Program-made: the position numbers and the translations under genes
The notes under the pieces: generated by a model
The model's input: the letters and a program-made list of their open reading frames with translations, nothing else
What the model was told of the DNA's origin: nothing
The model's database searches: none
Shown: positions 13,957 to 26,261 of the stretch, in pieces
Position numbering within the stretch: the stretch's first letter is position 1
Layout: every line of letters begins with the position of its first letter
Sequence record: NZ_CP064116.1
Source: a plasmid
Strand: one strand, 5' to 3'
DNA length: 64,000 bases

Positions 13957-14253
13957 TTATATCCATGGTTCATGCCGCGCCGTATCCTGAGACTGACTGA
14001 GAATACGTATGATCGTAACCACCGAATGTGATGACACAAAATAGATCATGTGCTGTTCCACCGGCAGCGAGCAGATATCTTCTCCCAGCTCTGCGCGATG
14101 CGTGCCGATGTCATGCATGGCCAGCACATCAAACACTGCGGCTATACGCCCGATATACGCATCCGCCTGAACAACCCCGAACTGTCTGAAGCTGTAGTCC
14201 CAGATAGCCTCCAGATCTTCTTCTGCTTTTGGTGTCAGCTCAATCTCTTTCAT
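13957..14253 (-). CDS. parE: ParE/RelE-family type II toxin
   Basis: ~98-aa ORF overlapping the upstream antitoxin gene by 14 bp. ParE-like length and sequence character. Confidence 0.7.
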   Translation of the reverse strand: MKEIELTPKAEEDLEAIWDYSFRQFGVVQADAYIGRIAAVFDVLAMHDIGTHRAELGEDICSLPVEQHMIYFVSSHSVVTIIRILSQSQDTARHEPWI

Positions 14254-14500
14254 TTGCCATCCTGGCCCTGACATTATTCAGGAATGCATCCTTGTTCCAT
14301 GGTTTCGCCTCGCCGCTGCTGATGCCTTCGGCCAGCAGATCACGCAGTTCCTGAAGGCGTGATTCAGCTTGCTTCTCGCGCAGCAGCCGCAGCGCGTCAC
14401 GCATGACTTCGCTCTGGGTTCGGTAATCACCGGCCTTAACCAGGGAATCGATAAATTCACGCAGCTCATCACCCACGTCCACCGTCATTGTACGGGCCAT
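14240..14500 (-). CDS. parD: ParD-family antitoxin (ribbon-helix-helix)
   Basis: 86-aa ORF (MARTMTVDVGDELREFIDSLVKAGDYRTQSEVMRDALRLLRE…) typical of ParD/CC2985-type antitoxins. First gene of the pair. Confidence 0.7.
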   Translation of the reverse strand: MARTMTVDVGDELREFIDSLVKAGDYRTQSEVMRDALRLLREKQAESRLQELRDLLAEGISSGEAKPWNKDAFLNNVRARMANERD

Positions 14501-14671
14501 AACCCCTCCGTTTCATTATGTAAGATTTGTTCTTACATAAGTATATCATTTTAGCATCAGGCTTCCATGGTCAGTGATCGAGACTATGGGCTGCATTTAT
14601 GAGATCAACAGGGATGCGAAATCAGATAGATATCTAATAGAATGCTGAGTTGTAGCCTTAAGCGAGAACTG

Positions 14672-15166
14672 GAAATGAAATTAACAGAAAATCGGGTGGA
14701 TACACTCATCGATACCCTGAACGACCTGATCTGTGATGAGCAAAGTATTACTCGCGAACAGCGAGAAAATTTAATTAAAACGGTTGCCACATTGGGTGGG
14801 CTTAAGGAGCGACTACGACTCATTTCTGCGGAGAAAGAAGCCAGACAGATCGCCAAAAACGAGAAGGTAAAGAAACCGCGCGAACCGGACCTGGTGTTTC
14901 CCCGTACTGGAAAGCCGTGGCTATCAGAGGACCTCGATGTTATCCATTCCATTATCGACGATATACCTGATGACAGAATTGATGATCACATCCTGTGGCT
15001 TTCAAAACAGCAAGGGCGCACTCCCTATGCTGTCGCACTGAAGATTGTTGGTGTAGGTAGAATGGATGATGAGTGGGCGAAAGCCTGGAAACCCGCGGCA
15101 AAATCGCTTCGAGAAGATTATGCAAAGCTTCATCCTGCTCCCTCTTCGGATATCAGCCAGGAATAA
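14672..15166 (+). CDS. Hypothetical protein (acidic, no recognised domain)
   Basis: ORF 14642-15166. The likely start is MKLTENRV at 14672. Confidence 0.4.
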   Translation, partial: EMKLTENRVDTLIDTLNDLICDEQSITREQRENLIKTVATLGGLKERLRLISAEKEARQIAKNEKVKKPREPDLVFPRTGKPWLSEDLDVIHSIIDDIPDDRIDDHILWLSKQQGRTPYAVALKIVGVGRMDDEWAKAWKPAAKSLREDYAKLHPAPSSDISQE

Positions 15167-15532: not shown

Positions 15533-16303
15533 ATGAATCATTCATTACCCGACGTTCTTCCCACTATCCGGAACGCCAGCCAGCTCAGTCCCGCTGCACT
15601 CGATATGGTCAAACTTCTCGCACTTCTGGCCATGATTATCGACCACACCAATACGGTGTTTCTGTCGTCAGCCTTGCCGGTGATGTATGCGCTTGGCCGG
15701 ATGGCCTTCCCCCTGTTCACGCTTATATGGGCGATGAACGTACAGCGCACCCCGGAGCGACTGCAGAAGAGAGCCAATCGTCTGTGGATCTGGGCAGTCA
15801 TAACGCAGCCGGTGTTCAGCCTGGCCTTCCAGAATCAACAGCCCTGGTGGGCCCTGAACATTCTGTTCGTGTTTGCAGGCGTCACGCAGCTGCTTGCCCT
15901 GCAGTACCGGCACGGCCGGAAAGGAATGCTTGCCGGGTATCTGCTCCTGGCCCTTATGATTTGGCCCCTGCAGCCGGCAAGTTACGGACTGGCAGGAATA
16001 ACGCTGGCCATCAGTATGGCAACGGTTTCTGGCAGCGATACACCCGGAGTGCAGCGGCTGGCAGCCATCACTGCCGTGCTGTCACTGATTTGTTTAAACG
16101 GGTTATCGCATCTCCTGGATATGCCCGCAGAAACATTATTACTGGCCACGCTGCCTACTCTGGCATTCCCCCTGGCAGTGGTTTCATTCTGCAGGCAAAT
16201 ATGTCCGGAGGGCCGTAGGCGTTTCATGCCGCGTAATTTCTTTTATTATGCTTACGCCGGCCACCTGGGGATCATTGGTCTGGTACAGACTACTTTTGGC
16301 TGA
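15533..16303 (+). CDS. traX: TraX-family protein (F-pilin acetylase-like membrane protein)
   Basis: 256-aa polytopic ORF whose N-terminus (…LDMVKLLALLAMIIDHTN…) matches the TraX family pattern. Confidence 0.75.
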   Translation: MNHSLPDVLPTIRNASQLSPAALDMVKLLALLAMIIDHTNTVFLSSALPVMYALGRMAFPLFTLIWAMNVQRTPERLQKRANRLWIWAVITQPVFSLAFQNQQPWWALNILFVFAGVTQLLALQYRHGRKGMLAGYLLLALMIWPLQPASYGLAGITLAISMATVSGSDTPGVQRLAAITAVLSLICLNGLSHLLDMPAETLLLATLPTLAFPLAVVSFCRQICPEGRRRFMPRNFFYYAYAGHLGIIGLVQTTFG

Positions 16304-16314
16304 CTTAGGATGAC

Positions 16315-16656
16315 GTGATGGCTATCAGTGAGAAAGAGCTTCTTGAGGCAGGTTTCAGTAACCGTGATGTGGATACTTTACTGGAGCGGCTTTCAGCAAC
16401 CGGTGGCACTATGCAGGGCTTCATTGCAGCACTTTCACGACGCTTCCGGGTATCGGTATGGATCACGGTCGCGCTCGCTCTGATTATGCTGGTCATTCTC
16501 ATCGCCGGCAGCCGGACACATATCCTGTCTGGCGGCATGAGTTCCCTCGTTGTCCTGACCATTGCCTGGTTGACCTTTCCACCGGCTCTTGGCTGGAAAG
16601 CATTCCGCCTGCAGAAGAATGCCCGGGGCAGGTTTCAGCAAAGTGATAGCCCGTAA
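16315..16656 (+). CDS. Small 2-TM membrane protein, paralog A
   Basis: 113-aa ORF with a soluble N-terminal helix (GFSNRDVDTLLERLSA) and two TM helices. Clearly paralogous to ORF 16739-17068. Confidence 0.5.
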   Translation: MMAISEKELLEAGFSNRDVDTLLERLSATGGTMQGFIAALSRRFRVSVWITVALALIMLVILIAGSRTHILSGGMSSLVVLTIAWLTFPPALGWKAFRLQKNARGRFQQSDSP

Positions 16657-16738
16657 CCACCTGACAGATTATCGGTCGGGCTTAACTGGTTATTGGCGCA
16701 GGGCATGTTAAACTTCCCGCAGGGAAAAGGAGAGAAGC

Positions 16739-17068
16739 ATGAACCATGAAAGTGATCTGATGAACCACGGCTTCAGTGAAGAGGACATTGTCCGGCTGCG
16801 GGCCAGTTCAGCTAAGACGGGTACGGAGATGGATACCCTGCTGAACGATCTGGCAAACCGTTTTAAGGCCCTGATATGGGTGTTGTCAGTCATGTTACTG
16901 ATTTTTGTGGCCACACTTTTGGCTGGCTCGAGGATGCATACCATTTCCTTCGGCGTGGCTATTCTTGTTCTTGGCACTCTGTTTACGATTACCATGCCTT
17001 TGAAGCTGGCCTATAAATCATGGCATTACCGCCGGAAAAATCTCATTTCCCGGAGTCATCAGAAGTGA
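16739..17068 (+). CDS. Small 2-TM membrane protein, paralog B
   Basis: 109-aa ORF with the same architecture as paralog A (GFSEEDIVRLRAS…, LLAGSRMHTISFG vs LIAGSRTHILSGG). Confidence 0.5.
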   Translation: MNHESDLMNHGFSEEDIVRLRASSAKTGTEMDTLLNDLANRFKALIWVLSVMLLIFVATLLAGSRMHTISFGVAILVLGTLFTITMPLKLAYKSWHYRRKNLISRSHQK

Positions 17069-17858
17069 TCAGATCGAAAACAACCTTAGCCTTTACCCCC
17101 CATCCCACAATTTTCATTGTCAGTTTACCCCGGGACATGGTGTCGATTTTCCGGTAAAAATCGGTGCTGATATAGTTAAACAGACGCCATGTCCCAGGTC
17201 TGGCCATTAATCCATAGACACTGTAGATATTGCCTGCAAGCGCGATCCCGTTGTATATCCCTAACCCTGTTGATCGTTCAAATCCCATGAATTTAGCGAT
17301 GTTCATGGCACCATCACCAAACATACCCTGCGTGTCAGGTTCATTCAGGAACTGACGACCAACTTCACGGGTTATCGTGTTGGCCGAGTCGACAATCAGA
17401 ATAGCCCCGGCAAGAACGCCTACGGGGGTCATTGAGGAAGTCAGCACGAAGCCAAATACGCCCTGCATACCTGCCAGCACCACTTTAATTCCTGAGATGA
17501 CATAACCGACCATCCGGTCTTCATCCCTGACGTATTTGATCTGGGCATATAGTTTCGCATAACCGGTCTGGAGCTGCCGGCTCTGCTCAAGCAGACTGCT
17601 GTTTTCTGCCTGCAGGTTACGCAGGCAGGTCATGCACTCTTCGTCAGACTTTGCCCGCCGGGCACGCTCAAATTCGCCATTAATGACAGATTTAATTTCA
17701 TCGATGAATTTGAGACGCGTCAATCCATCCCCCAGATGTCGGGCGCCAACAATATTAGCGGTATTGACGAGTTTGCGGGCCTCCAGATTAATCATGGTTT
17801 CTGCCCAGAGTCGTGCCTGGCTTTTGTTTCCCGGAAGAATTATATCCATTTTACTCAT
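17043..17858 (-). CDS. DUF4225-like membrane-associated protein of unknown function
   Basis: 271-aa ORF convergent with the paralog pair, overlapping it by 26 bp at the 3' end. N-terminal coiled coil plus a Gly-rich hydrophobic segment. Confidence 0.5.
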   Translation of the reverse strand: MSKMDIILPGNKSQARLWAETMINLEARKLVNTANIVGARHLGDGLTRLKFIDEIKSVINGEFERARRAKSDEECMTCLRNLQAENSSLLEQSRQLQTGYAKLYAQIKYVRDEDRMVGYVISGIKVVLAGMQGVFGFVLTSSMTPVGVLAGAILIVDSANTITREVGRQFLNEPDTQGMFGDGAMNIAKFMGFERSTGLGIYNGIALAGNIYSVYGLMARPGTWRLFNYISTDFYRKIDTMSRGKLTMKIVGWGVKAKVVFDLITSDDSGK

Positions 17859-18269
17859 CCTGATTGAAAATCACCCGTTAAAGCTTATCGCGCTCCCGGA
17901 TTTAGGCAACCCTGCTTTAAAGGGTAAAATAATAGTCTGATGCTGTCAGTAAACCTTCGCCCATGATGGCCAGCCTGTGTAGTCCAGGGTTCATGGAACA
18001 TGTATGCCGCGAAGCGGCATGGAGACGCCAGCCGGAGCTGAACCGGGTGATTCTGGTGAGGGGCGTCGTAACCGGCATCAGCCGTTACGGATTGATAGGT
18101 TCTGCCAATCCCATCCCTTTCCCTGCAAAGCTATACCCGCTTAAAGCTTTCCGATTGCTAATGTGCGCGGTCGGAGTGAGTCCGTCAAGGCCGATGGCCG
18201 CTGACGGGCTGTATCTCCGCGTTAGCGCCGTCAGGCGCTTACGAGCGTGTATGAAGTGATTACCGCGAC

Positions 18270-18799: not shown

Positions 18800-19813
18800 C
18801 TAGTCCGGGGGAGAAAGCGCCAGATCCAGCTGGTAAAGATGCTGGATGGCCAGAGCCTTCAGGCGCTCAGATGTGCACCAGTACGCTTCGTCAGGCGGGA
18901 GGGTGCGGTAAATCCATTCAGACATTGCATGGAGTCGTTCATCTGCCGGCAGCTTAATCAGATTGTTGGCACGTTTACGCTCCGCGCCTTTATTGCGGCG
19001 GTAAACGAGTGCCTCCCGACGCTTACGGCCAGACCAGCATTTCCGCGCAGAGTGGGCCTGAACATCATCATGTTCGCTCATCACTCCTTCCCGGATCAGC
19101 TGCTCACGCTCGGCGCTCTGACGGAGCTTCTTCTCCTGCTCTTTAAACAGCTTGTCCATATCGACGCCCAGCATCTGGAATCCCACGGGGGTTATATAGA
19201 CATACGTTGGCAACCAGGTGCGGGATTCACGATCCCAGGCGCGTTCTTCTGCGAGGCCCAGAACGCCAAACCGTACCTGTTCCTCAATAAGCCGTGAAAG
19301 GCGTGACACCGTCACCTCCGTTTCAGGAATGACATTGCCTTTTGCGTCCTTTGCACTGAGTTCTTTTGCAAGACGGGAGATACACATGCCGACGGTATGC
19401 TTGCCGGCATCACAGAAGCTGATGAGCACTGGCCAGAGCGCATCGAGCAGGCGCTGACGTTCCGGACGGAAGCCATATTTACGTCCCGCCTTACGGCGGC
19501 CGGCGACATAGAGAGGGTGACGAGAAACATGCATGCGCAGGCTGACCTGCCCGGTTTCTTTGTCTTTTTTCACCAGGCGATTGTAGGCATGACCGAGCTG
19601 TCCGGAGAGCTTTTTATAATGCTCCGGGCGATACCAGGCCGGGTTCTCACATTTGGCTTTTGTGGAATGCTCACCGCGTTTGCGGCGGGTCAGTTTTTTG
19701 ACCGGTGCAATGAGGAAATTACCCTGAGTGCCGGCATCGACATCCTGGCAGAAACGGGTTAGCTCATCTTTCGGTAGATCTGACCAGTGAACAGAAATCT
19801 GATTGTCATTCAC
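18800..19813 (-). CDS. repA: IncFII-family replication initiator RepA (RepA1-like)
   Basis: 337-aa ORF whose central and C-terminal parts align with IncFII RepA1 (…RPERQRLLDALWPVLISFCDAG…TPVGFQMLGVDMDKL…). Confidence 0.8.
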   Translation of the reverse strand: MNDNQISVHWSDLPKDELTRFCQDVDAGTQGNFLIAPVKKLTRRKRGEHSTKAKCENPAWYRPEHYKKLSGQLGHAYNRLVKKDKETGQVSLRMHVSRHPLYVAGRRKAGRKYGFRPERQRLLDALWPVLISFCDAGKHTVGMCISRLAKELSAKDAKGNVIPETEVTVSRLSRLIEEQVRFGVLGLAEERAWDRESRTWLPTYVYITPVGFQMLGVDMDKLFKEQEKKLRQSAEREQLIREGVMSEHDDVQAHSARKCWSGRKRREALVYRRNKGAERKRANNLIKLPADERLHAMSEWIYRTLPPDEAYWCTSERLKALAIQHLYQLDLALSPPD

Positions 19814-20394
19814 GGCGGCCTGTTCTTATGGCGGCCGGGTGTTGTGTTATGTGGTGCATGCGTTATAATCCTTCACAGGCCACGCGCCTGCTTTTGGACC
19901 CCCTGATATCTGTGTCTTCCGCCAAGATGATGACAGATGTCGGGGGGGTTGTGCATTCAGGCTCCGGGAAATCCCGTTACCTGCTCCTGAACGTTTTACT
20001 GGACACGTCCTGTCCCTGTCTGTTTCCGGAAGTCCGCATTTCTTCCGTAAAACCATCTTTTGCCACCCGCCTGCCTCACCACAAAGCAGTCAAACCGTCA
20101 GTTTGAGTTAGGACACAAAAGTAATCTGAATCAACAATCTGTCCCACCACAAGACGATCGCTGACGATCCGAATACTACCTTCTCATCAGTAACTTTTCC
20201 AGATGTTAGACCAGATAACAATCCATAGTTTTCATGCTAATTGTCCGGATGAGACTGCTAGCAAGCATCGCACGCAGTAAATTCAGGGCGTTGGGTTTGA
20301 TTTGGTAGGCCAGAGCAAGGAAAATAATTTAGAGGAAGAGCTTTACCTAATAGTTGCAAGTTGACTCTTTCGTATGTTCACTGCACTTAAAAAA

Positions 20395-20465: not shown

Positions 20466-21205
<740 letters not shown>

Positions 21206-21571: not shown

Positions 21572-22390
21572 TTAAAATTTACTCGCATGGATAACATCCA
21601 TTATAAATACAACTAAAGTATGAGATGCATTAACTGCGAGTCTAGCTTCGGCAACTACTATCTGCGGAGGGTTTTGACCACGCCCATGAGCACTCCCTAT
21701 ATGTGACCGGAATGCGCCAATACCGTCGATTAGTGATGAAATTCCTTTTAAAATTTTGTGCTGGTCACCCGCTAAAGTGGGATCGGAATTAAGGTCCAAG
21801 TCTGGCTGTACGACAGCCCAAAGTGGTGCTACATTCAATTTTTGTGGCATAGGTAAATTGAATTTTTCTATGTAGCATTTTAATGCAGATTCAATTATAG
21901 CGCATGCGGCAGTGACTGATGCATGTGGATCGGTTTGAATATTCTCCACTGCACGAAGAAACTCATTTTCAATGGATGAATAGTCACCAGACTTTAGATA
22001 ATCCTCTAACGTCTTAGAAATCGGAGTAGACCCAGACTTAGTTATAAATCCATTGAGTCTGTAGACTAATTGGTTCTTGGATAAAGCATCAATTATTCTT
22101 TTTTGTCCACTTTCGACTGTAGACCCAGCTCCTGCCCTAGAGAATGAATTTGGAGGTAAATCCATATATTTTTGGATAATTATCCCCAGTACTGAAATTG
22201 CATCTACTGAGTCATCTTCATTGCAAGCTTTAAGCCAATTGCTGCATTTTGTTTCACAGTTTCCTGGAGGCACCTCACCAGGTGCGCCCGATTCCATAAA
22301 CAGTGAATTTAAAGTTGAATGGCTAAAATAATGCTCACCCAGTACTGAAGACACCGCGCCAATTACATTGTTAGGTATTTTATTATTCAT
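21572..22390 (-). CDS. Abortive-infection-like protein (Abi_C-type C-terminal domain)
   Basis: 272-aa ORF in an AT-rich islet. The C-terminal motif AFRSHIGSAHGRG resembles the conserved R-x-x-x-G-x-AHG motif of the Abi_C family. Confidence 0.5.
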   Translation of the reverse strand: MNNKIPNNVIGAVSSVLGEHYFSHSTLNSLFMESGAPGEVPPGNCETKCSNWLKACNEDDSVDAISVLGIIIQKYMDLPPNSFSRAGAGSTVESGQKRIIDALSKNQLVYRLNGFITKSGSTPISKTLEDYLKSGDYSSIENEFLRAVENIQTDPHASVTAACAIIESALKCYIEKFNLPMPQKLNVAPLWAVVQPDLDLNSDPTLAGDQHKILKGISSLIDGIGAFRSHIGSAHGRGQNPPQIVVAEARLAVNASHTLVVFIMDVIHASKF

Positions 22391-23026: not shown

Positions 23027-23153
23027 TGGTGGCTGGCGAGGACTCGAACCTCACATCCCCTTCCAATAGATTCAGTACCTAAACCTATTGGAAGGCCCTT
23101 CAAAATTGCTTATGAAGGGACCCAGGGAGCTCTACCAACTAAGCTAACCAGCC
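23027..23153 (-). ncRNA. tRNA-like element with an expanded internal region
   Basis: Read on the minus strand: acceptor 5' GGCTGGT, D-arm GCTT-AGTTGGTA-GAGC, then two hairpins (~75 nt) in place of an anticodon arm, T-arm GAGG-TTCGAGT-CCTC, acceptor 3' GCCAGCC, discriminator A, CCA. Total ~127 nt. Confidence 0.4.
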
Positions 23154-23969
23154 ATTAAATGCATTCCGGAGTCTATCAACCTCATCTTTATCTTGCAAGT
23201 AATTGTTGATTAATGTCTTTGTGATTGCATTGTCTTTACGAGGACCAGTAAGGTGTTTATATTTTATGCAAAGTGATTTTGCGATTTTTTCAATGTCTAA
23301 CATTTTTTGGCAGATATGGTGGGCGACCTGTTGGCATACCTGAGAATACAGAATTACATCACGTATTGTTAATTCAGCTTCTTTATTAACTTCATGCTTG
23401 TATTTTTTACTCATTTTAATTAAGTCAGATTCTGAAAACATTTCTTCCCAAAGATTAGTGTTTTCTCGGCTATGTGCGTTAATATTACGAACAAGTCTAA
23501 AGTAATCCAATAATTTTAAATCAAGTTCATCAATGTAAATTGACAACTCATTATGGTTTAATTTAGGATGCGTAATCTTACCATTTATTTTGTTCACATG
23601 AGCATGGTGAATTGCTCTACGTAGTATGTCTACATTATCAATATTGAATGACCGTTCATCACTATATATTTTTTTTGACAAGGAAATGTAGTCTTTCAAA
23701 AATGATTCTAGGCAGCTATATATAAATGCAATATGACTTTGTGTTACGTAGAGAGATGTTTTGTAAATCTCTAAATGTGCAACTTTTAGTTTTGCATTTT
23801 TATGCTTTTTAGTTACGTCTTCAATTCGATTAATGTTAATGCGGCCAGATTCATCTTTGCAAAGGAGTTCCTTTACTGCTACATCAATCAGAATTAAATG
23901 TGGGTTTACTGTCCCTAAAAGTTTTCTGAATTTTGTCTCAATAGATCGTGGCTGCATATCTTCTGTCAT
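23139..23969 (-). CDS. HEPN-like protein (AbiD/AbiF Abi_2-type R-x4-H motif)
   Basis: 276 aa from an ATG with AGGAGG 10 bp upstream. ~30% GC. Motif YFRLVRNINAHSRE (R-x4-H). Its 3' end overlaps the tRNA-like element. Confidence 0.45.
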   Translation of the reverse strand: MTEDMQPRSIETKFRKLLGTVNPHLILIDVAVKELLCKDESGRININRIEDVTKKHKNAKLKVAHLEIYKTSLYVTQSHIAFIYSCLESFLKDYISLSKKIYSDERSFNIDNVDILRRAIHHAHVNKINGKITHPKLNHNELSIYIDELDLKLLDYFRLVRNINAHSRENTNLWEEMFSESDLIKMSKKYKHEVNKEAELTIRDVILYSQVCQQVAHHICQKMLDIEKIAKSLCIKYKHLTGPRKDNAITKTLINNYLQDKDEVDRLRNAFNGWLA

Positions 23970-24102
23970 AGGTAACGCCTCCTGTGTTGAGATTGATTTT
24001 ATAAAATACACGGCAAAGATTAACTTCACTTTGATAGTCAGAGACCGTTTAAGCGAGTTGTGGGCTAAAGATAAATTATTATTGGTCTGAATCCTCAGGC
24101 CA

Positions 24103-24753
24103 TTAATATTCAACGATATCTTGCTTCACGGAACTTAAATCAATCTCTGGCTGTAAAATCAGGACAGTATAACCCATACTCACAGGCAATTTCTCAGTTT
24201 TGAGCCCGCACTGCTCCAATAATGGAAATATCCCGTCTGGAACGCCAGTTACACGCACCTCAAGTGGCAATATAAGATTTCCTGATTCTGTAAATGAGCT
24301 ATGGAGTTGAGATTTCTGTGTATACACAGCCGATACATCTGTACCGCATTTCCAACCATCCTGCCACTCGGTATCGGATAATAGGTGATCCTGCCAGCCC
24401 ATTGAACGTAGCGTGTCAATCATGCAGGTGAATCTAAACAGCGTGCTCTGATTGGCTAACTCACCAGAGCTTGCCAGCCAGATATACTCCACCTTGCTGT
24501 AAAGCCGTGCTGATGGCCCTTTCAGTTTCCCTTGTTCCTGTAACCAGATTATGTCAGGCGCCAGAGATTTAGGAAAAACCTTGCGTTTCTGAGCGGTTGA
24601 AAGCCACTGCATTATGAACATGTGTGTTTGAAGAGACGTGAGAGATCTTCCCTCTTTCCGTGCAAGCTTTACCGCTACGATGATGCACCAGGCGAGATGA
24701 GCTAGTTCAGTATCAGGGCGCTTAGTAGTTAGCTCAGTCAATACTTTCTCCAC
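24103..24753 (-). CDS. Hypothetical protein between the VasL-like gene and the HEPN gene
   Basis: 216-aa ORF with no recognised motifs. Same strand as its neighbours. Confidence 0.4.
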   Translation of the reverse strand: MEKVLTELTTKRPDTELAHLAWCIIVAVKLARKEGRSLTSLQTHMFIMQWLSTAQKRKVFPKSLAPDIIWLQEQGKLKGPSARLYSKVEYIWLASSGELANQSTLFRFTCMIDTLRSMGWQDHLLSDTEWQDGWKCGTDVSAVYTQKSQLHSSFTESGNLILPLEVRVTGVPDGIFPLLEQCGLKTEKLPVSMGYTVLILQPEIDLSSVKQDIVEY

Positions 24754-24914: not shown

Positions 24915-26261
24915 CTATTTTTGGTTGTTTGACGTGGCCATGATGTAGGAGTTATTCAGTTGCCTGAGCTGTAGATCTGCCCGGTTGAGCAGGTCTCGGG
25001 ACAGCGGTTGATCCTGCGGGGAATTTTGCAGTTGCCGGATTAATTCTTCAACTGGCACGCTTTCGTTTAAGGACTTTGATATAGAGAACACAGCAGTTTT
25101 AAGCTCACTAACGGTCAGGTATTTGCCCTTCTTCTCGTCGAGTTGATTAAGTCTGTCCTGAAGCGTCTGAAGCTCAGATACTCCCCTATACCAACCTGAA
25201 ATGGTGGCATTGGGCAAACTATTGGCTTGCAGCTTTGACCGCCAGTCAGCCGACACCTCCTCTGCAAATTTGGTGTTAGGGTAAAGATGGCGCGTTTGTT
25301 CTACCAACTGATTACCGTATTGCAATGGCCAATACGGTGGAAGAATGCTCAGTTCGTTCAGACGGGAAGTTAATTTTTTTGCATAGGTATCACTGGATTC
25401 AAGCCACGTCGGGGCGTCCTGGCGTAGCTTATCTACAGCCGGAAGAGGCATGCTGGACGGTAAAGCTGCGAGAGAGTTGTTCAACGCATCTTCTCCGGGG
25501 TGGCTGAATACTATTGGAGTAAAAATAAAGGCGAGTATGCCCAGTACGGCAGCTGTTAAAATACCGCCGAAGTAAGCCACTAATGGAGTGATCCTGGTGG
25601 ATGATTTTCTGATTACTTCAACTTCAACTGCTGGTTCAGAATTCACCACATATACCCAGCGCTGCCTATTCTGCCTTTCAGCCCTAACAGGTAGTGCTAC
25701 ATCTGTTAGATTGCTCTCTGTCTGGCTTGAGGGGACATCGCTATTCTCCAGCCTGATAGTTGTGTTTTGCAGCATCTGACGAAGCGGCTCAAATCCGCTT
25801 GCATTGTGGAGTTCGAGCCGTTGCAAGGCTTCACCTGTTGAGCTCAAAAGCCTTATGCCCTGGTTCAGGCCTGGTAAATCCTCCTTCTGAAGGGAAAAAG
25901 TCCGGTACAGCTGCTGAAGACGTTTACTCAGGCTGCTAAGTATTTCTATTCTGGCATGTGCAGAAGCGGGCCACATTGCTGACCATTGGTAGCGTATCAG
26001 GGCATCCAGAATCGCCATACCTTCATTGAAACCCTGTATACCCGCCTGTTGTGCCCTTGCCAGGGTATACCACGCAGCTGTCTGAAGCTCGACACCATTG
26101 GTATCGAAAAGGTTTAATGCCAGTTTTTCAACATTCCCCCAATTCACATCCGGACGGGCAGGATGGGAGAGTTTGGCAAGCTCATCACGTAGCGCTGAAT
26201 AATCAGGCATTGTGCGAGGATCGTTTCCGGTCTTGAGGTGGCGTTCGGTAGTGTTGGACAT
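24915..26261 (-). CDS. VasL/ImpA_N-family (type VI secretion-associated) protein with one TM segment
   Basis: 448-aa ORF. The N-terminus (…RPDVNWGNVEKLALNLFDTNGVELQTAAWYTLARAQQAG…) fits the ImpA N-terminal domain pattern. Central TM helix (LVAYFGGILTAAVLGILAFIF). Confidence 0.6.
   Translation of the reverse strand: MSNTTERHLKTGNDPRTMPDYSALRDELAKLSHPARPDVNWGNVEKLALNLFDTNGVELQTAAWYTLARAQQAGIQGFNEGMAILDALIRYQWSAMWPASAHARIEILSSLSKRLQQLYRTFSLQKEDLPGLNQGIRLLSSTGEALQRLELHNASGFEPLRQMLQNTTIRLENSDVPSSQTESNLTDVALPVRAERQNRQRWVYVVNSEPAVEVEVIRKSSTRITPLVAYFGGILTAAVLGILAFIFTPIVFSHPGEDALNNSLAALPSSMPLPAVDKLRQDAPTWLESSDTYAKKLTSRLNELSILPPYWPLQYGNQLVEQTRHLYPNTKFAEEVSADWRSKLQANSLPNATISGWYRGVSELQTLQDRLNQLDEKKGKYLTVSELKTAVFSISKSLNESVPVEELIRQLQNSPQDQPLSRDLLNRADLQLRQLNNSYIMATSNNQK

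Follow-up and report, generated by a model that had tools for sequence, protein, structure and literature searches.

What is the function of three genes that stand together between traX and the replication gene repA of an Enterobacter plasmid? The question is raised by a stretch of plasmid DNA of 64,000 nucleotides (nt) from sequence record NZ_CP064116.1, called here the window, in which positions 16,315 to 17,858 hold two small genes on the + strand (S1 and S2) and, converging on them from the - strand, a gene with a DUF4225 domain (D). An earlier reading of the letters, made without database searches (the sequence-only reading), had described the three genes as a candidate toxin/immunity-like module, and this idea is strongly supported by the tail-to-tail gene order at related loci, by the co-divergence of the two gene families and by published experiments on a DUF4225 homolog (PMC9765294). 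The locus is probably an orphan antibacterial effector-immunity cassette of the DUF4225 type, in which S2 would be the immunity gene that belongs to D, and S1 one left over from an earlier cassette. The genes on which the argument turns are the following.

16318..16656, + strand: S1, putative orphan immunity gene of the S family, 112 amino acids from the ATG at 16318 (RefSeq).
16739..17068, + strand: S2, putative cognate immunity gene of the S family, 109 amino acids.
17043..17849, - strand: D, predicted DUF4225 effector, 268 amino acids, RefSeq WP_013087100.1.
17043..17068, convergent: overlap of the coding 3' ends of S2 and D, 26 nt, with no intergenic space for a terminator.

The two + strand open reading frames (ORFs) of 113 and 109 amino acids and the DUF4225 ORF were all confirmed in position. 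The longest ORF of S1 begins at a GTG (16315-16656, +, 113 amino acids), and S2 has a ribosome-binding site, AGGAG, 8 nt 5' of its start. The longest ORF of D is 17043-17858 (-), with 271 amino acids; the start at its fourth residue (M4) is backed by RefSeq and by the family alignment, as M4 and D5 are invariant at the N-terminus in an alignment of 35 homologs. D was found to match the Pfam family DUF4225 (PF13988) with E = 2.9e-31 and 108.6 bits (cut-off 25.9), over residues 81-242 of the 271-amino-acid ORF and profile positions 2-165 of 165, which bears out its first description as DUF4225-like. S1 and S2 are paralogs (BLASTP, 33% identity over 105 residues, E = 1e-18), both have the motifs GFS(N/E)(R/E)D(V/I) and L(I/L)AGSR(T/M)H, and each has two hydrophobic helices, so that the similarity and the common architecture noticed at first sight are real. 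The LxAGSR(T/M)H motif, present in both, is not conserved across the S family. Likewise, of the two small genes said to overlap D, S2 does so by its 26 nt, whereas S1 ends 386 nt short of the end of D. The sole ORF 3' of D on the strand of D itself (16708-16995) is antisense to S2. Searches of Pfam, NCBIfam and PADLOC with S1 and S2 gave sub-threshold noise only (ParG, MARVEL, '2TM effector' at E = 0.04).

The evidence that carries the proposal comes from gene neighbourhoods across the Enterobacterales. One genome per species was scanned, which gave 80 loci with D homologs at 42-77% identity in Enterobacter, Erwinia, Pantoea, Mixta, Tatumella, Kosakonia, Yersinia, Morganella and other genera, and all ORFs of these loci were queried with S1 and S2. 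At 79 of the 80, an S-family ORF with two transmembrane (TM) helices was found on the opposite strand, abutting or overlapping the 3' end of D, and the single non-conforming locus is a contig that ends 106 nt after D. The association of DUF4225 genes with the small paralogs that the sequence-only reading had anticipated was thus upheld. Of 67 intact pairs of D and S at other loci, 27 overlap by 4 nt, 21 by 23 nt and 4 by 26 nt. The convergent S partner is also kept where the identity of D falls to 25-32%, as in Yersinia, Erwinia MYb416 and Xenorhabdus.

On comparing the pairwise identities of D with those of S across the loci, a Mantel correlation of r = 0.85 was obtained, and 0 of 2000 permutations gave a value as high. 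The mean identity across loci is 39% for S vs 62% for D, so that S diverges faster. The common ancestry of the cassette contributes to the correlation, which shows joint inheritance together with faster evolution of S, the usual signature of immunity partners. Clustering of the genes 5' of D gave no recurrent family, the commonest being present at no more than 5 of the 80 loci, and lone pairs of S and D also occur in unrelated chromosomal settings. Because the upstream context is not conserved and single cassettes exist on chromosomes, it was concluded that D and S form a self-contained two-gene unit.

Some loci hold more than one copy. In Erwinia sp. MYb416 (L101, 994-3725), in Yersinia thracica (L034, 4914-9111) and at L058, L065 and L071, paired cassettes or an extra S copy or D fragment were seen, and these look like local arrays of the convergent unit. 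Cassettes of the Enterobacterales type (D at 52-58%) were also met in records titled Vagococcus sp. WN89Y (L011), in a metagenome-assembled genome of Geobacteraceae (L064) and in one of Bacillota (L074); L064 matches the traX-S1 region of the window at 82%, and all three are most likely contaminating or mis-binned contigs.

The sequence-only reading had stated that none of the three genes had an assigned function. For D this has been overtaken, since DUF4225 was shown in 2022 to be an antibacterial effector domain of type VI secretion systems (T6SS) (PMC9765294). The DUF4225 protein of Vibrio parahaemolyticus CFSAN018764, encoded downstream of hcp, is a T6SS1 antibacterial effector that is lytic and toxic only when directed to the periplasm; it is neutralised by Imm4225, a protein of 89 amino acids with three TM helices encoded directly downstream (PMC9765294). 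Polymorphic toxins of the PAAR, VgrG, Hcp, Rhs and CdiA types are also reported to carry the domain as their C-terminal toxin part (PMC9765294). Data set S4 of the same study holds E. cloacae homologs of 268-269 amino acids with a 104-amino-acid neighbour with two TM helices at distance -4 and further such genes downstream; for a homolog in Erwinia mallotivora, it gives hcp as lying 17 nt upstream (PMC9765294). The D protein of the window resembles the Vibrio effector in its PF13988 domain, in being a stand-alone cargo of about 250-270 amino acids without a signal peptide and in having a small membrane protein as neighbour, and both D-S2 and the Vibrio pair are orphan or auxiliary modules on mobile DNA. 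With regard to the features of the effector modules described by Jana et al. (PMC9765294), the window has the PF13988 match above threshold and a gene for a small TM protein adjoining the toxin gene, and it has neither a same-strand downstream immunity gene nor linkage to hcp, vgrG or PAAR. The N-terminal part of D, about 95 residues, is specific to the Enterobacterales subtype of about 270 amino acids.

Divergent homologs were collected by a full-library phmmer search with the toxin domain and then placed in their genomic context. The search gave 108 representatives, all of at most 315 amino acids, and fusions to PAAR, Rhs or CdiA were not recovered among them. Two types of module were distinguished. 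Type A proteins have about 265-272 amino acids, share the N-terminal domain of D and have a convergent S-family partner even at 25-32% identity; members were found on a Yersinia plasmid, in Erwinia MYb416 (two tandem cassettes), in Xenorhabdus (L103) and on the Pantoea plasmid pPAB02. Their partners match a hidden Markov model (HMM) of the S family at E values of 5e-53 to 4e-11 (32-168 bits). In the Xenorhabdus homolog, which aligns with residues 25-268 of D, hcp abuts the gene upstream, and in E. mallotivora (L060) an Hcp fragment is linked to a type-A D. Type B proteins have 240-256 amino acids, a differing N-terminal region and co-directional multi-TM partners. In Serratia marcescens the gene follows those for Tae4, Tai4 and Hcp within the main T6SS cluster, in Pseudomonas lundensis the order is hcp-D-imm, and Photorhabdus also has type B. 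The Serratia protein is 26% identical to D over residues 75-261 (E = 9e-15). The type-B modules of all three genera are linked to T6SS genes, and adjacency to hcp was seen in both types.

The type-B partners are related to each other (E 5e-15 to 1e-3), and their TM helices start at the N-terminus. When the S HMM was run on the partners from Serratia, Pseudomonas and Photorhabdus, which made up the comparison, with Vibrio Imm4225 lying outside it, the scores were 7.1 to -2.6 bits, and pairwise BLASTP gave E values of at least 0.8. Co-directional DUF4225 partners were confined to type-B relatives, while S2 is on the opposite strand. Since type-B modules use an unrelated co-directional family of putative immunity proteins, the convergent layout is specific to type A; this layout and the S family together mark a particular DUF4225 subtype. 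Directly 3' of type-B DUF4225 genes, multi-TM ORFs of about 111 amino acids were observed on the Serratia marcescens chromosome (L095, 4759-5097, +) and in Pseudomonas lundensis (L098, 4701-5036, +). They are absent from the called-gene tables; probably they are immunity genes that annotation has missed, and their family is not that of S.

Within type A, an experimental link to secretion is found in Pantoea agglomerans pv. betae, where Pse9a and Pse9b were detected in the T6SS1-dependent secretome; small predicted immunity genes, Psi9, lie nearby, orphan Psi9 copies exist, and the genes occupy variable hotspots that include plasmids (preprint, 10.64898/2026.08.01.741415). The copy that this strain has on pPAB02 (A7P61_RS01735) shares 52% identity with D across 95% of its length, and an S-family gene (HMM E = 5e-53) converges on it. 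The S family includes the predicted Psi9, and in Pantoea, too, the immunity role is a predicted one. The Pse9 copies (Pse9a-d) are carried by the chromosome, a megaplasmid and one smaller plasmid, whereas the copy in the window occupies a slot next to the replicon of a conjugative IncF plasmid. E. cloacae ATCC 13047 has two functional T6SSs (PMC7541819), and the trio locus is carried identically by this strain, on pECL_A. A survey of the T6SS arsenals of E. cloacae and E. bugandensis excluded plasmids (PMC10763514), so that the trio locus would escape it.

Why should one toxin gene be accompanied by two small paralogs? The answer appears to lie in the history of the slot, the parts of which are listed here.

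15533..16303, + strand: TraX-family gene (Pfam TraX, E = 1.7e-36), left border of the cassette slot.
16617..18003, no strand: exchanged S2-D segment with its own flanks, about 1.4 kb (blastn mosaic and junction sequences).
17850..18003, - strand: upstream region of D, which moves with the cassette; right recombination border at about 17928-18003.
18800..19813, - strand: IncFII-type repA by RefSeq annotation and by MOB-suite typing, which marks where the slot ends on the right.
19827-19950, - strand: PK-repBA, the pseudoknot of the repBA leader (Rfam, 84.6 bits), 5' of repA.

The placing of the trio between traX and an IncFII repA was confirmed by the TraX match, by the RefSeq repA and by the PK-repBA leader, and S1 starts 14 nt past the stop codon of traX. 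PK-repBA, the sole match in an Rfam scan near repA, fits an IncFII-type replicon under antisense-RNA control.

The closest relative of D, at locus L007 (75%), is paired with the closest relative of S2 (50%), and this partner shares 27% identity with S1. The identity of S1 is 74-79% with the S partners of another D allele, D1, at L064, L066, L002, L089, L104 and L106, and the D proteins of L064, L066 and L002 are 53-55% identical to that of the window. Plasmid records with identities of at least 90% number 120 for D, 116 for S2 and 42 for S1. Several Enterobacter IncFII plasmids have the order ParDE, hypothetical gene, traX, S, D1, repA, with a single S. Compared with the window, the identities of these D1-type plasmids are 97-99% for RepA, 86-98% for TraX, 50-56% for D1 vs D and 77-79% for S vs S1. 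At the nucleotide level (blastn), homology of 88-93% extends up to position 16616, which is 40 nt before the stop codon of S1, and is resumed at 92-96% from about 18003; between these points only the D gene aligns, at 65-67%.

These relationships indicate that S2 is the cognate partner of D, and that S1 is a retained orphan immunity gene, left over from an older S1-D1 cassette. A cassette of about 1.4 kb with S2 and D replaced the D1 gene and the last 13 or so codons of S1, and these last codons, after 16616, are new sequence made by the replacement. The sequence-only reading had explained the two paralogs by a recent duplication, which is contradicted by their 33% identity, by the allele relationships and by the mosaic breakpoints. 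Because of the latter two, S1 was concluded to be the leftover of a replacement rather than a recent duplicate, and a recent tandem duplication of S1 and S2 was excluded. No D remnant was found between S1 and S2 by tblastn, so the old D gene was removed completely. The region 17850..18003 presumably carries the promoter of D.

A search for flanking repeats at the borders of the cassette gave short chance-level matches only. A direct repeat of 15 nt (16347-16361 and 16627-16641; GGCAGGTTTCAG(T/C)AA, 93% identity) was observed inside S1, its first copy encoding the conserved EAGFS and its second lying in the new C-terminal tail, just beyond the breakpoint; it could be a coincidence, or it could go back to the 5' end of another S gene.

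The cassette is also found outside this backbone. An IncC plasmid of E. coli, p13ZX36-200, matches its core (16644-17928) at 97.7% identity, and the traX flank of this plasmid is only 83.5% identical. There (L092, 3880-3920) S1 has an internal deletion of about 304 nt and reads MAISEKEL|IAR*, and S2-D is intact. Since the internally deleted S1 is retained, p13ZX36-200 derives from the S1-S2-D arrangement, and the possibility that traX-S2-D was an independent ancestral order was rejected. Decay at the slot was observed to run both ways: S1 is lost in p13ZX36-200, and in Enterobacter sp. JBIWA008 plasmid pJBIWA008_1 (L105, 1896-2701) it is D1 that is frameshifted, with S intact.

For orphan immunity genes of polymorphic toxin systems, a displacement pattern is described for orphan modules of Rhs and contact-dependent inhibition (CDI) systems and for T6SS orphans (PMC10539506, PMC10763514). 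S1 is like these in being a paralog kept without its toxin beside a newer effector-immunity pair. It differs from them in that the displaced element is the toxin gene, that the retained S1 is upstream of the new pair and that the slot in the plasmid backbone is fixed.

How the proteins of the cassette might act was approached from their predicted architecture. S1 has TM helices at residues 45-63 and 69-87 with a loop of five residues (GSRTH) and a predicted N-in orientation. S2 has a cytoplasmic N-terminal segment of 43 amino acids (with the L..GFS motif and ending in RF(K/R)), TM helices at 44-62 and 68-86, a GSRMH loop and a basic C-terminal tail. Phobius gave i43-64o70-93i for close relatives of S2, and a topology with both termini inside and about five residues exposed to the periplasm is predicted. 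The residues invariant across the family are LL..GF and RF in the cytoplasmic N-terminal segment and P...K.W after the second TM helix; variation between alleles falls in the TM helices and in the AGSRxH loop. S2 has all the features of the family, namely LL..GF and RF, the TM hairpin, the basic tail and a convergent DUF4225 gene for about 270 amino acids, and S1 has the sequence features, its D partner having been lost. D is all-helical and without a signal peptide, and three parts were defined in it.

17565..17831, - strand: N-terminal domain of D, residues about 7-95 of the 268-amino-acid form, predicted three-helix bundle (AlphaFold2, predicted local distance difference test (pLDDT) about 80-88 for residues 10-90).
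17133..17618, - strand: DUF4225 toxin domain (Pfam match), residues 81-242 of the 271-amino-acid ORF.
17391-17501, - strand: glycine-rich hydrophobic helical hairpin of D, residues 120-156.

The N-terminal domain has a conservation of 0.67-0.82 per block of 20 residues and aligns with the hcp-linked Xenorhabdus homolog and not with the type-B Serratia protein; it is inferred to be the loading or delivery part. The glycines of the hairpin are invariant in alignments of D down to 19% identity.

On the mechanism proposed here, D would be made in the cytoplasm and be harmless there. A chromosomal T6SS of the host would load it, probably through Hcp, and inject it into the periplasm of neighbouring cells, where the glycine-rich hairpin would attack the inner membrane or envelope so that the target lyses. 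S2 would neutralise D inside the inner membrane. Because almost no residues of S2 face the periplasm, this neutralisation must be intramembrane, and from this it would follow that D inserts into the inner membrane, the putative target. Being tail-to-tail with D, S2 would be transcribed independently of the toxin, as happens with immunity genes in pore-forming colicin operons. As the coding 3' ends overlap, each of the S2 and D transcripts must extend into the other gene in antisense. S1 remains from the S1-D1 cassette whose toxin gene was replaced by the incoming S2-D, and it may cross-protect against D1-armed relatives.

Delivery of the window copy by a T6SS is suggested by analogy, and the link is indirectly backed by type-A relatives that are hcp-linked or T6SS-secreted, by the T6SSs of ATCC 13047 and by a gene in the window itself with ImpA_N and VasL domains. 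This gene (24915-26261, -) encodes a full-length T6SS accessory protein of 448 amino acids (ImpA_N, E = 9.7e-20; VasL/EvfB, E = 1.6e-33) at a distance of about 7 kb from D. Next come genes for a DUF2913 protein and for a 324-amino-acid protein without a Pfam match (24103-24753, -, and 23139-24113, -), and an IS26-like ORF adjoins the ImpA_N/VasL gene. In pECL_A the VasL gene is a fragment of 243 amino acids between IS3 copies, vs full length in the window.

Several observations weigh against the proposed effector-immunity reading. No hcp, vgrG or PAAR gene adjoins the cassette in the window, where the Vibrio gene has its hcp, and no recurrent hcp was found upstream among the 80 loci; the T6SS dependence of the window copy therefore rests on homologs. 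The validated Vibrio Imm4225 has 89 amino acids and three TM helices and is co-directional, whereas S2 has 109 amino acids and two TM helices, is convergent and is a predicted immunity protein. The lysis caused by the Vibrio effector was likened to that of the amidase Tse1 and not to that of the membrane disruptor Tme1 (PMC9765294), which weakens the view of D as a pore former. When D was modelled twice by AlphaFold2, from 35 and from 63 sequences, the toxin domain had a pLDDT of 30-40, and only the N-terminal bundle was confident. With this low-confidence model, Foldseek found no match in the PDB at E of 0.001 or below, only generic helical bundles, and a PDB sequence search with D gave only de novo helical designs at E of about 0.02. 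The cassette is rare in E. coli, in 6 of 5426 complete genomes, and every one of these copies is plasmid-borne. Finally, S1 shares just 77-79% identity with the S proteins paired with extant D1 alleles, so that its cross-protection is uncertain.

The convergent layout invites a comparison with colicins. In ionophoric colicin operons the immunity gene is on the opposite strand with a promoter of its own and encodes a small integral inner-membrane protein (PMC9517006). The cassette is like pore-forming colicins in its opposite-strand membrane immunity, in its helical toxin with a hydrophobic hairpin, in being plasmid-borne and in having polymorphic alleles. It is unlike them in that D has no colicin Pfam family at E of 0.1 or below, no fold match to colicin pore domains in its low-confidence model, no receptor or translocation domains, no lysis-gene ORF and no SOS box, and its delivery is presumably by a T6SS. 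The resemblance is one of layout, and perhaps of mechanism, and not of family membership. A bolder version of the proposal takes the tail-to-tail overlap as the hallmark of the type-A class, D as a colicin-like pore former, S2 as independently expressed and possibly antisense-coupled immunity, and the cassette on Enterobacter IncFII plasmids as a T6SS-delivered device for plasmid addiction and plasmid competition at the level of the population. It is offered as speculation and is on balance unlikely. If it were true, plasmid-free cells would be killed by plasmid-bearing neighbours, as would cells with an incompatible sister plasmid carrying the older S1-D1 allele, and a plasmid with S1 and S2 would be immune to both alleles.

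Other explanations of the locus give the same proteins different roles. In the one that survives best, which is nevertheless very improbable, the S proteins are accessory factors of D (membrane chaperone, export adaptor or regulator), and immunity is located elsewhere or is unneeded. The part of S that is most conserved is indeed the cytoplasmic N-terminal segment with LL..GF and RF and not the membrane or periplasmic part; the conserved N-terminal domain of D would also fit a cytoplasmic contact between the two, and the immunity role of S is a predicted one. However, S evolves much more quickly than D and varies in step with it, orphan or arrayed S copies occur without D or beside a decayed D, a pattern that typifies immunity genes rather than adaptors for secretion, and the allele-variable TM helices fit allele-specific recognition within the membrane.

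It was also considered whether D and S2 form a plasmid-addiction pair that acts within a single cell in the manner of a toxin-antitoxin (TA) system, with a membrane toxin made in the cytoplasm and a labile membrane antitoxin, with the death of segregants that lose the plasmid, and with no secretion system involved. The setting speaks for this: the plasmid is large and of low copy number, repA adjoins the cassette, ParDE and a GNAT/DUF1778 TA pair are encoded near it, and T6SS structural genes are absent from its immediate surroundings; a hydrophobic hairpin is present in D, which lacks a signal peptide, and S2 is a membrane protein. Yet the validated Vibrio homolog shows toxicity from the periplasm only and none in the cytoplasm (PMC9765294), most cassettes are chromosomal and stand in varied contexts, and among the relatives some are directly downstream of hcp and the Pantoea homologs are T6SS-secreted. 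In type II TA operons, where a cytoplasmic toxin and a soluble antitoxin are encoded co-directionally as a bicistronic unit, convergent and separately transcribed genes are not the usual layout. D and S2 are convergent, the latter being an integral membrane protein, and no TA-family match for them was found in Pfam, NCBIfam and PADLOC. The single-cell addiction pair is therefore regarded as very improbable.

Even less credence is given to the idea that D is a released colicin-like bacteriocin that leaves by lysis or vesicles and enters through a receptor, with S2 as a colicin-type immunity protein. It would account for the opposite-strand gene for a small inner-membrane protein, as in ionophoric colicin operons (PMC9517006), for the location on a plasmid and for the central hydrophobic hairpin of an all-helical toxin. 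Against it stand a Pfam search that matched, at E of 0.1 or below, none of the pore, receptor-binding and translocation domains of colicins, the lack of a lysis gene and of a LexA box within 250 nt upstream of D, the size of 268 amino acids, which is too small for colicin-like import domains, and the hcp linkage and T6SS secretion of relatives. Equally hard to credit is the module as inert cargo, hitch-hiking in a recombination-prone region, unexpressed or not deliverable by the host and without present function, which is suggested by the frameshifted D1 in pJBIWA008_1, the internally deleted S1 in p13ZX36-200, the truncated D in several plasmids and the promoter scan of the locus, which, like the terminator scan, stayed at chance level, but is countered by D and S2 being intact and at least 95% conserved in more than 100 plasmids of several genera, and by the spread of the cassette to p13ZX36-200 at 97.7% vs 83.5% for the traX flank, which suggests selection on the unit.

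D homologs were found in 371 of 72,556 plasmids, with 210 in Enterobacter and 68 in Pantoea; the others are in Klebsiella, Escherichia, Cronobacter, Citrobacter, Erwinia, Yersinia, Salmonella and Kosakonia. The plasmid of the window is of an Enterobacter IncFIB/IncFII type. The stretch with the trio is 100% identical to pECL_A of Enterobacter cloacae ATCC 13047 and to about 40 other Enterobacter and Klebsiella plasmids, and outside this stretch the window and pECL_A differ, so that the window stems from a plasmid closely related to pECL_A. To the left of the slot are a ParD antitoxin gene (14240-14500, -), with ParE upstream of it in the RefSeq annotation, and a conserved hypothetical gene for 174 amino acids (14642-15166, +) that accompanies traX in several plasmids. 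To the right, a DUF1778/GNAT TA pair and an Abi_C abortive-infection protein are encoded near the slot (20466-21205, +, and 21572-22390, -). The slot is thus flanked by other conflict and maintenance genes.

DUF4225 antibacterial modules have been known since 2022, and relatives from Enterobacter and Pantoea are already catalogued. What is added here is the strict convergent S-D architecture, separated from the co-directional type, the naming of S2 as the putative cognate immunity gene and of S1 as the orphan, and the replacement of a cassette at a fixed slot between traX and repA of IncFII plasmids. Three 'hypothetical' genes on more than 100 clinical resistance plasmids of Enterobacter, Klebsiella and E. 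coli thereby become a concrete candidate for an interbacterial weapon. T6SS effector-immunity pairs, if this candidate is one, can travel on conjugative plasmids beside the replicon. An allele swap that keeps the older immunity gene would illustrate, on a small scale and cleanly, how an arms race is played out at one fixed slot of a plasmid, and the split between convergent immunity proteins with two TM helices and co-directional ones with three offers an entry point to the recognition of DUF4225 toxins within the membrane.

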